The translations under genes were made by a program, and so were the position numbers. From positions 10,059 through 74,058 of the forward strand of contig JAKAKI010000034.1 of NCBI GenBank assembly GCA_021813505.1: DNA of 64,000 nt, given 5' to 3'. Below the pieces are notes generated by a model. The model was given only the letters and a program-made list of their open reading frames with translations. It did no database searches and was not told the DNA's origin. Shown here piece by piece: positions 6,091-35,024 of this stretch (positions are counted from its first letter, which is position 1; each line of letters begins with the position of its first letter). The DNA is from a bacterium. Lineage in GTDB: Bacteria > Zixibacteria > MSB-5A5 > WJJR01.

Positions 6091-6852
6091 TCAATACTGG
6101 GATTCGGCCTGGGGGCCCAGGATGCGGATGAAGTTGCGAAACAACTCAAGCCCCGGCCACTGTTTGTGGCGAAGCTCTTGATGATCGGCGATCCAGCGAG
6201 GGATCAGGGGTATCGGAATCAGCCGGGGCGATTCACCGCTCAACTCCGCTGTCAGCCGGGCCAGCGGAACCGTCAACGGGAGCGGCATGGGGACCTTGTC
6301 GATGTCGTTGGCGATCGGATCGACGCAGAGTTCGGCGGGAGAGGTGACGTTGTATTCGCGGCATACGACCGGGCGATGCAGATGGATGCTGCACAGTTCA
6401 TCCACCAGAAACGGGCACGCCATCCCGAGGAGAAAATACTTGCGCGCGATCGGGAGCACAGCTTCGTCGACATATTCTGGATTGAGCAGTTCATCGATCA
6501 TCTGCAATCGCTCGAGTTCGCCGGCGATTCTACTCATGCGTGACATAACTTCATCGCGGTGAGCCGGCTCAAATGAATCGATCAGATCCTGCAGGTAGAA
6601 TGCTTCCGGCGGCGAAATCGCGACCATGTGGTGGCAGCAGGCTGCGCACCGGGCACGGCAGGAAACGTGGCGTCCTGCGTGCACTTCGCGCCGATGGGCC
6701 TGGGCCACCAGAACGTTGGTCAATTCAAAAGCGGTCGGCACGAGTTCCGCCAGCCGCATCGGGCCCGTGTCGACCTCGACGCGGCCCCGCATGACGCCTT
6801 CCGGTGTCTGGAGCGTGACGGACATTAGTGCTACGCGACTGTCGCCCGTCAT
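6091..6852 (-). CDS. YkgJ/UPF0153-family Cys-cluster (putative Fe-S or zinc-binding) protein
   Basis: The cysteine cluster CRARCAACCHH (C-x3-C-x2-CC) is close to the CxxCxxCC signature of the YkgJ / flagellin N-methylase (FliB) family. The start overlaps the upstream gene by 4 bp. Confidence 0.45.
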   Translation of the reverse strand: MTGDSRVALMSVTLQTPEGVMRGRVEVDTGPMRLAELVPTAFELTNVLVAQAHRREVHAGRHVSCRARCAACCHHMVAISPPEAFYLQDLIDSFEPAHRDEVMSRMSRIAGELERLQMIDELLNPEYVDEAVLPIARKYFLLGMACPFLVDELCSIHLHRPVVCREYNVTSPAELCVDPIANDIDKVPMPLPLTVPLARLTAELSGESPRLIPIPLIPRWIADHQELRHKQWPGLELFRNFIRILGPQAESQY

Positions 6853-24424: not shown

Positions 24425-24525
24425 ACGCTTTCACCTCGTCTCTGAAGATTGTCCAATCAGAAAGATAATGATTTTCGTTTTCTTTCGCCACCCCTCCATC
24501 AGCTATTTTTCAATACGACCGGATT

Positions 24526-32751: not shown

Positions 32752-33300
32752 TTACCGGGCCTTCTTGATGAAATCTCTGCCGACCTCAATCTTCACGCGT
32801 TGCTCGGTCTTCTTGGGAATGTTCAATGCCAGCCGCTCCTGGGCGACGCCGGCCGACCGGTAGAAGTCGGCAATGGCGCACAAAACCGGCTTTGCCTTTT
32901 TGACCTTAAAGTAATTTCCCTCCAGCTCCACGGTGGCTGTCCCTGAGGGGCTTACGATGACGCTGCCGCTGTCCAGGATGTCATTGCCGAGCACCGAGGC
33001 AAGCTGGTCGTGGTACGAGGGATTGAAGAAGACATCCTTATCGGTCCCGGTGAATCCCGCGGTGCTGGTCAACAGATACACTTTGACCCGGATCGTATGG
33101 GCCGAGTTGCCGTCGAAGTTCAAATCGGACGTCCCGTTGAGAACGACTTCGACGTGCATGGGCTTTTCCTGCTTGCCAAACAGCCAGCCGCATCCGGAGA
33201 TGGAAGTCAAAATCAAAATGCCAAGGCATGCAGTGGCGAACCTAGCTCCGATCCAGCGGCGCGTTGCCGGGCGCCTACCCTCATTGACAGTCAGGCTCAT
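32752..33300 (-). CDS. tssJ: T6SS outer-membrane lipoprotein TssJ
   Basis: Signal peptide with lipobox LTSISGC, ~180 aa. The gene is first in the J-K-L-M order. Confidence 0.78.
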   Translation of the reverse strand: MSLTVNEGRRPATRRWIGARFATACLGILILTSISGCGWLFGKQEKPMHVEVVLNGTSDLNFDGNSAHTIRVKVYLLTSTAGFTGTDKDVFFNPSYHDQLASVLGNDILDSGSVIVSPSGTATVELEGNYFKVKKAKPVLCAIADFYRSAGVAQERLALNIPKKTEQRVKIEVGRDFIKKAR

Positions 33301-34082
33301 TGATCCCCCTTGCCGGATGAGTGTTGATCCCCCTGCCGGGACTTCATTTTCGCGAGCATCACTTCACGATATCCCCGGCGGAATACAGGACGAAACAGCT
33401 TTTCGAACTGCCCGGTATCCTCGGATACCAGTTCTTGATAGCGCCTCTGATACTCTTTCCACAAGAGCAAATTCCGAAACGGATTCAGCCGCCGGAACAG
33501 GTTCGCGCCCCCATCCCCTTCTTTGCCAATGACTTCAGAACGGATCGTCTCCGGGGCCAGGGTGCGCAGGACCTCCAGGGTCCCCTCGCGGCTGCTTTGC
33601 TCGTAGCCGGCCAGGAGCGCCAACTGGTGGTATTTCAATTCGTCAATAGCGGCGCGCAGTTCTTTGATCTGGGTGTCATCGAGCGACGTCGATTTCCAAT
33701 CGAACAGGCGGCGCAGCATGTCCTGAAAATTCTCAGAACGCCATACGCGCGTCGCTGAGTCGGCCGCTGCGCGATCAAGGCCGAAGTCTTTCTGGAAGCT
33801 CTTGCGTCCCGATAAGAGTTCACGGAATTCCTGGATCAGGACATCGATCCCGTGGACAATGCGCTCGCAGAATGCGCGAATCTGGTCGGGATTCTCCAGC
33901 GCGGCCTCCTCGCCGGAGAAGCGATGCGCGAGACGTTCCAGGTAGTGCAATGCGGTCCGGTTCAATTCGAGCTGCTGCCGGAGACGGGCATTTTCCTCGC
34001 GCAATTTCTCGACTTCGCCGGTTCCACCGGCACTCACCTCGTCCATGGTTTTCCCTGTCTCCGAGCTCTTGCGATTTCGCAT
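33297..34082 (-). CDS. Hypothetical coiled-coil protein, first gene of the T6SS operon (possible accessory/regulatory component)
   Basis: A 261-aa, charged, heptad-rich protein (EVEKLREENARLRQQLELNRTALHYLERL...). Its stop overlaps the tssJ start by 4 bp. The upstream intergenic region carries a palindromic operator-like site. I recognise no family. Confidence 0.45.
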   Translation of the reverse strand: MRNRKSSETGKTMDEVSAGGTGEVEKLREENARLRQQLELNRTALHYLERLAHRFSGEEAALENPDQIRAFCERIVHGIDVLIQEFRELLSGRKSFQKDFGLDRAAADSATRVWRSENFQDMLRRLFDWKSTSLDDTQIKELRAAIDELKYHQLALLAGYEQSSREGTLEVLRTLAPETIRSEVIGKEGDGGANLFRRLNPFRNLLLWKEYQRRYQELVSEDTGQFEKLFRPVFRRGYREVMLAKMKSRQGDQHSSGKGDQ

Positions 34083-34142
34083 GCCAAGCCGGCACCGCCC
34101 AGCGGCCTGCCAGCCGGCTGAGGGTTATACACTCAAGGAAAA

Positions 34143-34159
34143 TTGACAATCATTGTCAA
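34143..34159. promoter_or_regulatory. 17-bp perfect palindrome TTGACAAT-C-ATTGTCAA, candidate operator/promoter element for the T6SS operon
   Basis: ttgacaatcattgtcaa lies ~60 bp upstream of the start codon of the first T6SS-operon gene (34082). It is between that gene and the tRNA-Ser 3' end. A TTGACA -35-like hexamer is embedded in it. Confidence 0.45.
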
Positions 34160-34205
34160 GTATGTTGAAGGCCACCCCCGCCTCCAGGCATGGCGTCAAT
34201 CCATG

Positions 34206-34292
34206 CGGAGAGGGGGGGATTCGAACCCCCGGACCTCGTGAAAGGTCAACGGTTTTCGAGACCGCCCCGATCGACCGCTCTGGCACCTCTCC
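34206..34292 (-). tRNA. tRNA-Ser (anticodon CGA), class II with long variable arm
   Basis: The reverse complement folds as GGAGAGG-TG-...-GCGGT CTCGAAA ACCGT-(GACCT TTCACG AGGTC)-GGGGG TTCGAAT CCCCC-CCTCTCC-G. The anticodon loop is CT-CGA-AA. There is a 5-bp variable stem and discriminator G. CCA is not encoded. Confidence 0.8.
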
Positions 34293-34325
34293 GGGGGCGA
34301 ATATATAATCCCGCCCCCGGTCTTG

Positions 34326-35024
34326 TCAGTGTTTTTCCGGCATGCCTTCCCCAAATCTCCGCGTTCGGAGATAGTCGAGGAACTGGGTCATGTCGCGCCG
34401 GAATTGGACCTTGCCGGTGAATTTGATAGTCTCGTCGGAGGCATCCATGGAGAAGATCAGGTGGGCGAAGGGCCGCCACTGGGGTTCTTCCGTGCCGAAG
34501 TCACCACACGCGACGGCGGCATAGACCGGCATCGAGGTGGTCTGCCAGTAGCCCTTGAAGACGAAATACACAGTGATGCTATCATCAGAGAGGACGGCAC
34601 GTTGGAAGCCGCCGGAGAACAGGTCTCCCCAGGTTACGAATCCGACGGTATTGCCCTCGCCCAGGACCTGCAATTGGGGCTCCTTGAGGAATCCTGCGGC
34701 GGGCAAGGTGACCATGCGCGACCAAAGGTCGGTGATTCGCTTCGTAAACAAGGAGTCCATATTGGCCACACCGTAGCGCTGGACCAGAAGCGTGACCGCG
34801 TCGAAATCGCCATGTCCCACATGGTACCACAGCGCGACGGCCACCGACTCGGCTTCCTCGACGTGCAGGCGGCCCCACTTCGCTGCCTCTACATCCGTCA
34901 GTTGGTACTGGTTCCTCAGCGCATCAATTCGGGTCTCGGGTTTGCCGCAACTTGAAATGTACACACCGGCAGCCAGTATCAAGCTACTTGTCAGGAGGAT
35001 GGGAGCCGACCAATGCCGCGTCAT
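34326..35024 (-). CDS. Hypothetical lipoprotein
   Basis: An internal start MTRHWSAPILLTSSLILAAGVYISSC gives a signal peptide plus lipobox. The track ORF begins at an upstream GTG with a Pro/Arg-rich leader that is unlikely to be coding. Confidence 0.45.
   Translation of the reverse strand: MTRHWSAPILLTSSLILAAGVYISSCGKPETRIDALRNQYQLTDVEAAKWGRLHVEEAESVAVALWYHVGHGDFDAVTLLVQRYGVANMDSLFTKRITDLWSRMVTLPAAGFLKEPQLQVLGEGNTVGFVTWGDLFSGGFQRAVLSDDSITVYFVFKGYWQTTSMPVYAAVACGDFGTEEPQWRPFAHLIFSMDASDETIKFTGKVQFRRDMTQFLDYLRTRRFGEGMPEKH

Follow-up and report, generated by a model that had tools for sequence, protein, structure and literature searches.

Organisation of the T6SS locus

The window, the whole stretch of 64,000 nucleotides of Zixibacteria DNA analysed here, carries a T6SS cluster on its minus strand. 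The first gene of the cluster encodes a 249-aa protein with the TagH C-terminal domain (PF20232) and without an FHA domain. This tagH-like gene overlaps tssJ and is followed by tssK, tssL, tssM, tagF and tssA, while tssB, tssC, hcp, tssE/F/G, clpV, vgrG, a DUF2169 gene and the gene for an Rhs protein lie downstream of tssA. The exact TssK protein is also encoded on contig DAIEEF010000115.1 of MAG GCA_027457325.1, and close homologues carry a Zixibacteria annotation. At the distal end of the cluster, a CxxCxxCC protein (PF03692, putative zinc- or iron-chelating) is encoded at 6091-6852, two genes beyond that for the Rhs effector; it might matter if the T6SS is under metal control.

A tRNA-Ser(CGA) gene, which did not figure in the original prediction, precedes the tagH-like gene on the same strand and has a sigma-70-like promoter of its own (Table 1). 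The 17-bp palindrome is located in the non-coding DNA between this tRNA and the first T6SS gene, 46 nt downstream of the tRNA 3' end, and is followed by TTTTCC. Its sequence lies exactly where it had been reported, and the TTGACA said to be embedded in it is present. Past the palindrome, the minus strand reads TTTTCCTTGAG, GTGTATAAC (which includes the TATAAC at 34129..34124), a leader of ~75 nt, GGAGACAGGGAA and the ATG at 34046. In the leader, AGCCGGC...GCCGGCT (34085-34118) could pair as a 7-bp stem, and a CTTGGC..CGAAA stretch beyond this stem is partly conserved in relatives.

The locus was compared with relatives whose TagH-like proteins show 97% (L005), 89% (L006), 76% (L007/8), 65% (L009/10), 61% (L011/12) and 55% (L013-15) identity. 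The seven lineages referred to below comprise the window with L005, L006, L007/8, L009/10 with L140, L011/12 and L013-15. The original prediction had measured ~60 bp from the palindrome to a start codon at 34082, which is the first ATG of the tagH-like open frame. Public MAG gene calls instead begin at 34046 (MDE...), and this start is conserved across relatives together with a ribosome-binding region, GGAG...GGGAA; positions 34047-34082 show non-triplet indels in relatives. Since the public annotation and sequence conservation agree, the true start of the TagH-C-like gene is probably 34046, and the dyad centre would then lie ~105 bp upstream of the start codon.

Table 1. Positions of the genes, promoters and sequence elements discussed in the text
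Feature	Position	Strand	Remarks
tagH-like gene, first of the T6SS operon	33297..34046	-	TagH C-terminal-domain protein; overlaps tssJ
tRNA-Ser(CGA)	34205..34292	-	same strand as the T6SS operon
tRNA-Ser promoter	34300-34329	-	CTGACA-18-TATATT, sigma-70-like
G+C-rich hairpin	34171..34194	-	directly after tRNA-Ser; from folding
Perfect 8-1-8 palindrome	34143..34159	-	TTGACAAT-G-ATTGTCAA (T6SS coding strand); putative operator
15-bp 7-1-7 core (box 1)	34144..34158	.	TGACAAT-N-ATTGTCA, Fur-family-like
Candidate promoter P1, -35	34154-34159	-	left-arm TTGACA
Candidate promoter P1, -10	34131..34136	-	TTGAGT, 17 bp on; putative
Candidate promoter P2, -35	34148-34153	-	ATGATT, weak
Candidate promoter P2, -10	34124..34129	-	TATAAC, 18 bp on; putative promoter role
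Box 2	24463..24477	-	CGAAAATCATTATCT; Fur-like 7-1-7 (3 mismatches); ~40-55 nt before the ATG of tssB (24424)

The palindrome sequence, TTGACAATCATTGTCAA, is present as a single copy in the window, even when up to three mismatches are allowed. Perfect palindromes with 8-nt arms and a 1-nt gap occur twice in the window. Under a first-order Markov model, a mean of 1.5 such palindromes per 64 kb is expected and 80% of random 64-kb windows contain at least one. As perfect 8-1-8 palindromes are common by chance, the case for the site depends on its position and its conservation.

The proximity of the tRNA suggests two further explanations for the palindrome. That it is the intrinsic terminator or a processing hairpin of tRNA-Ser is very improbable. 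Its RNA can fold into a hairpin (7-bp stem, 3-nt loop) that precedes UUUUCC, but this hairpin has a stability of only -5 kcal/mol and contains two G-C pairs, and the consensus fold of six lineages has 5 bp, -3 kcal/mol and no compensatory pairs. The T-run is not conserved either, relatives having CTTGCC, CTTGGA or GTTTGG; a terminator scan was blank at the site, and the G+C-rich hairpin that immediately follows the tRNA is stronger. We therefore reject a terminator on the basis of the weak hairpin, the lack of covariation and the non-conserved T-tract. The sequence of the G+C-rich hairpin is not conserved, and the spacers of five related loci (L006, L007, L009, L011 and L013) show candidate G+C-rich inverted repeats by eye. 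If these repeats hold up, this hairpin is probably a likelier tRNA 3'-end, terminator or processing structure than the palindrome.

Even less probable is an att site, or the boundary of a T6SS island integrated at the tRNA-Ser 3' end. The T6SS cluster does begin right after the tRNA 3' end, and more distant Zixibacteria have the cluster elsewhere, without the tRNA, as an island boundary would allow. Against this, the tRNA 3' end is single-copy in the window, the scanned ORFs of the window include no integrase, and the G+C content is flat across the junction. Furthermore, the synteny of deaminase, 157-aa protein, 232-aa protein, tRNA-Ser and tagH is kept down to 48% TagH identity.

Several minor observations concern these neighbours. 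The conserved 157-aa and 232-aa proteins are membrane- or secreted-like and have no Pfam match. Two Logan contigs that are independent assemblies of the same strain (L003 and L004) both end ~230 bp upstream of tagH, inside tRNA-Ser; strain variation, or a repeat at the tRNA, might account for these breaks. In L013, a tRNA-Arg(ACG) at 1764-1839 lies at the very start of a TadA-like deaminase gene (1812-2426) in synteny with the T6SS locus; this tRNA is the known substrate of TadA.

Conservation and putative promoter geometry of the palindrome

In all relatives at 97-55% TagH identity, tRNA-Ser is located directly upstream. The 45-75 nt that follow it are unalignable between lineages, whereas a block consisting of TTGAYWWTGAWTGTCAR-N13-TATAAY is nearly invariant, with fixed spacing, in the seven lineages; mean identity over the tRNA-to-start-codon interval in the same alignment is 56%. 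Around the hexamer, GTGTATAAY is nearly invariant across the aligned lineages, and the -10 hexamer is degraded in the L012 contig. In the 15-mer core, T1, G2, A3, T7, G8, A9, T11, G12, T13, C14 and A15 are invariant and positions 4-6 and 10 are variable. Only the window and its 97% relative have a perfect palindrome, and the other lineages retain six of the eight arm pairs. Among the seven lineages, only L006, which has TCAG, departs from the symmetric ends TTGA...TCAA. Of the two arms, the left is the less conserved, and a -35 role might by itself explain why it is retained. The clusters with 48% TagH identity (L016/17, L018/19 and L020) have no dyad and carry ordinary promoters in its place, namely TTGATT-17-TAGACT, TTGTCA-17-TACTAT and TTGTCT-17-TAGTAT. 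Its absence from these clusters suggests that the dyad is a clade-specific elaboration of the promoter region.

A promoter scan found no canonical sigma-70 promoter on the minus strand at the palindrome. By eye, two candidates were recognised, TTGACA-17-TTGAGT (P1) and ATGATT-18-TATAAC (P2), with one weak hexamer each. The -10 position of P1 is poor in the window and good in L011 (TAGATT), L012 (TAAATT) and L016 (TAGACT). The -35 of P2 coincides with the invariant dyad centre, WTGAWT, and its -10 is strongly conserved as TATAAY. Sigma-70-type promoters elsewhere in this genome include those of tRNA-Ser (Table 1) and of tRNA-Met (TTGACT-17-TAAGCT). Under either P1 or P2, the dyad would extend over the -35 and into the spacer, from ~-42 to -20.

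Three other arrangements were considered and set aside. A sigma-54 promoter (GG-N10-GC) does not fit, the leader stretches TGGCAT...TCGCA and TGGCAG...TGGGC placing GC one base too far by eye and not being conserved. A MerR-type spacer operator requires a spacer of 19-20 bp, and no -10 lies at that distance. A known cis-regulatory RNA is not indicated, as Rfam returns only the tRNA, and its other matches fall below the gathering score and overlap the tRNA.

Taken together, the site is a dyad-symmetric, non-coding element upstream of the first gene of the operon, within an upstream block that is conserved in orthologues while the flanking non-coding DNA has diverged. In these respects the geometry that was originally proposed, an operator lying over a promoter, is supported, but the identity of the -35/-10 pair beneath it is ambiguous. 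The fixation of the dyad and TATAAY while neighbouring intergenic DNA diverges is the pattern expected of an operator that overlaps a promoter. On balance, these comparisons lead us to favour, with modest confidence, a repressor operator over the T6SS promoter. The palindrome would form the core of a promoter-operator module of ~40 bp serving the T6SS membrane-complex operon, from the tagH-like gene to tssA. A dimeric DNA-binding protein would sit on both arms and, when bound, would keep RNA polymerase off the promoter; it is this predicted exclusion that assigns the protein the role of a repressor. A conserved operator of this kind would offer a concrete entry point to the regulation of the T6SS in an uncultured phylum; as the operator itself is ordinary and promoter-proximal, the gain is incremental.

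It is unlikely that the block is simply a promoter, with TTGACA as the -35, the bases downstream of it reflecting spacer and discriminator preferences, and the dyad symmetry incidental. Such a promoter would be in keeping with the chance frequency of perfect 8-1-8 palindromes given above, with the imperfection of the dyad in most relatives and with the TTGTCA-17-TACTAT-type promoters that distant clusters carry at the equivalent place. Yet the spacers of sigma-70 promoters are not normally invariant, and here TGAWTGTCA, within the would-be spacer, is the best-conserved part. The retention of the symmetric TTGA...TCAA ends in nearly all lineages likewise argues for an operator rather than for a promoter only.

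Identical 17-mers and candidate regulator families

The original prediction had proposed looking for a TetR/MarR/XRE-type regulator and for further copies of the palindrome that would define a regulon. A Pfam scan of the ORFs in the 64-kb window revealed no gene for a TetR, MarR, XRE, Fur-family or other regulator. A position weight matrix built from the orthologous sites was run over ~130 kb of Zixibacteria DNA and yielded no further strong site. The exact 17-mer was then scanned against 185,579 species genomes, one per species of bacteria and archaea, and matched at least 119 stretches. Among the matches listed, the only Zixibacteria locus was the orthologous one (L040, which is the L005 locus), and the related Zixibacteria genome had no second copy. 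Most of the matches examined in G+C-rich genomes look intergenic, often lying within longer dyads, and chance matches in such genomes are very rare by a rough estimate from composition. Two matches in E. coli fall within the tqsA coding sequence and were dismissed as chance.

The remaining matches precede genes of several kinds. In at least six Actinomycetota loci (L034, L047, L053, L102, L104 and L125), the 17-mer is directly upstream of a ZnuA (PF01297) gene. There it takes a -35-plus-spacer placement, so that the architecture proposed for the T6SS site is found in front of a classic Zur target. In a Mycobacterium MAG (L055), the gene downstream of the 17-mer encodes a small His-rich protein. 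These Actinomycetota 17-mers, before znuA and in L055, are presumably Zur boxes. In about nine Bacteroidota loci (L058, L112, L126, L045, L100, L121 and L138, and also L021 and L042), it lies 15 nt before an XRE-type HTH_3 gene. A near-identical stretch of ~200 bp is common to several families among these Bacteroidota loci and has the look of a mobile element that encodes an autoregulated repressor. Two alphaproteobacterial loci (L036 and L066) have the 17-mer upstream of TetR_N genes. In Acidobacteriota / Aminicenantes, TTGACAATAATTGTCAA is conserved upstream of a gene for a pilB-like ATPase (T2SSE + MshEN), which is followed by a pilT-like gene (L032, L128, L137, L031 and L083); there the left arm is placed as a -35, and a -10-like hexamer follows after 16-17 bp. 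At another Acidobacteriota locus, the 17-mer is upstream of a sigma-54 response regulator. Since identical 17-mers precede XRE, TetR and pilB-like genes, the sequence alone cannot name the regulator family, and TTGACA-based dyads evidently lend themselves to use as operators by several protein families.

These matches bear on a reading that we consider doubtful, though it carries some weight: that the palindrome has nothing to do with metals and binds a dimeric regulator from outside the Fur family, such as an XRE, TetR or MarR protein, or a class-II-type activator. Many HTH dimers typically bind odd-centred 17-bp dyads such as this one. The occurrence of the identical DNA directly upstream of the presumably autoregulated XRE and TetR genes is a further likeness. 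However, XRE, TetR and MarR operators usually lie beside their own gene, and whereas the regulator gene is adjacent in the Bacteroidota and alphaproteobacterial loci, no XRE, TetR or MarR gene adjoins the T6SS cluster here or in the relatives examined. An activator would suit the weak -35 and -10 at the site, which could create a need for activation, but a class II site of the CRP/FNR type is even-spaced and centred at -41.5, and this dyad is odd-centred at ~-28 to -34 from the inferred transcription start.

The Acidobacteriota / Aminicenantes matches also raise the idea that TTGACAAT-N-ATTGTCAA is the operator of one regulator, common to several environmental lineages and controlling envelope machines. 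We regard such a shared regulator as improbable. It would control the T6SS in Zixibacteria and, in Acidobacteriota/Aminicenantes, the pilB-pilT-type ATPase operon, with the left arm doubling as the -35 in each case.

Resemblance to Fur-family boxes

The Fur-family 7-1-7 consensus is TGATAATnATTATCA. The 15-bp core of the palindrome is AT-rich, has the same 7-1-7 layout and differs from TGATAATNATTATCA at two positions. At three or fewer mismatches, the Fur consensus matches five times in the window, compared to 0.95 expected, and two of the five matches are T6SS intergenic boxes. G/C pairs occupy positions 2, 8 and 14 of the core, and T-G-A...G...T-C-A is invariant in the seven lineages. The same three G/C pairs are the signature of the 7-1-7 Zur box in S. 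coelicolor (PMC9371925). The actinobacterial Zur box before znuABC resembles the Zixibacteria core in being a 15-bp 7-1-7 element, TGAnAAT-n-ATTnTCA, with G/C at 2, 8 and 14 (PMC9371925), and at several of the actinobacterial znuA sites the left arm likewise provides TTGACA, with a -10-like hexamer ~17 bp on. In contrast, positions 4/12 are C/G in the Zixibacteria core, T/A in Fur boxes and A/T in Zur boxes. The two settings also differ in phylum and in target, which in Zixibacteria is a secretion system and not a metal transporter. Metal-homeostasis genes were not found in the 64-kb window or in ~100 kb of related loci. If the palindrome is an operator, a Fur-family metalloregulator (Fur, Zur or Mur type) is the most likely family of binder, with about an even chance, and we offer it as a lead only.

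PMC10441874 describes the control of T6SS clusters by Fur or Zur in Yersinia, Burkholderia, Pseudomonas and EAEC. The cases named there are the main and internal promoters of EAEC sci1, T6SS4 of Yersinia pseudotuberculosis, T6SS4 of Burkholderia thailandensis, and Pseudomonas aeruginosa. The Fur/Zur-repressed T6SS clusters of Proteobacteria resemble the arrangement proposed for the Zixibacteria locus, in that a metalloregulator-type box overlaps the operon promoter. They differ in that binding was demonstrated by EMSA, footprinting and genetics, whereas in Zixibacteria it is inferred, and in that no GATC/Dam overlap is present at the Zixibacteria site. With a regulator of the Fur family, the T6SS would be de-repressed under metal limitation; a Fur- or Zur-type protein would thus tie the system to metal scarcity, as in Proteobacteria. 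A full-text literature search found no paper on T6SS regulation in Zixibacteria or other uncultured FCB-group lineages.

The second T6SS intergenic box, box 2, lies in the tssA-tssB gap and was first picked out by a pattern devised post hoc. It is kept as YGAAAAYCATTATCTTT in L220, L221 and L140; conservation extends to relatives with as little as 65% TagH identity, although the flanks diverge, and the box is lost in L144. Box 2 may serve tssBC-hcp as an internal promoter or operator. It is more like Fur boxes than like the 17-bp dyad, which argues against an operator of another family. The presence of one box at the operon start and one before tssB parallels EAEC, for which PMC10441874 describes a second box at the internal promoter. 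A Fur/Zur-type regulator may gate the T6SS via two boxes in this uncultured FCB-group phylum, and if such two-box gating is true, a metal-acquisition role would be implied for this T6SS.

The original prediction had also pointed to a half-site, TTGGACAATC, in the same gap. This sequence is present on the minus strand at 24447-24456, just downstream of box 2, but it is not conserved in relatives. What is conserved in the tssA-tssB gap instead is a different box, GAAAATCATTATC, which adjoins the half-site.
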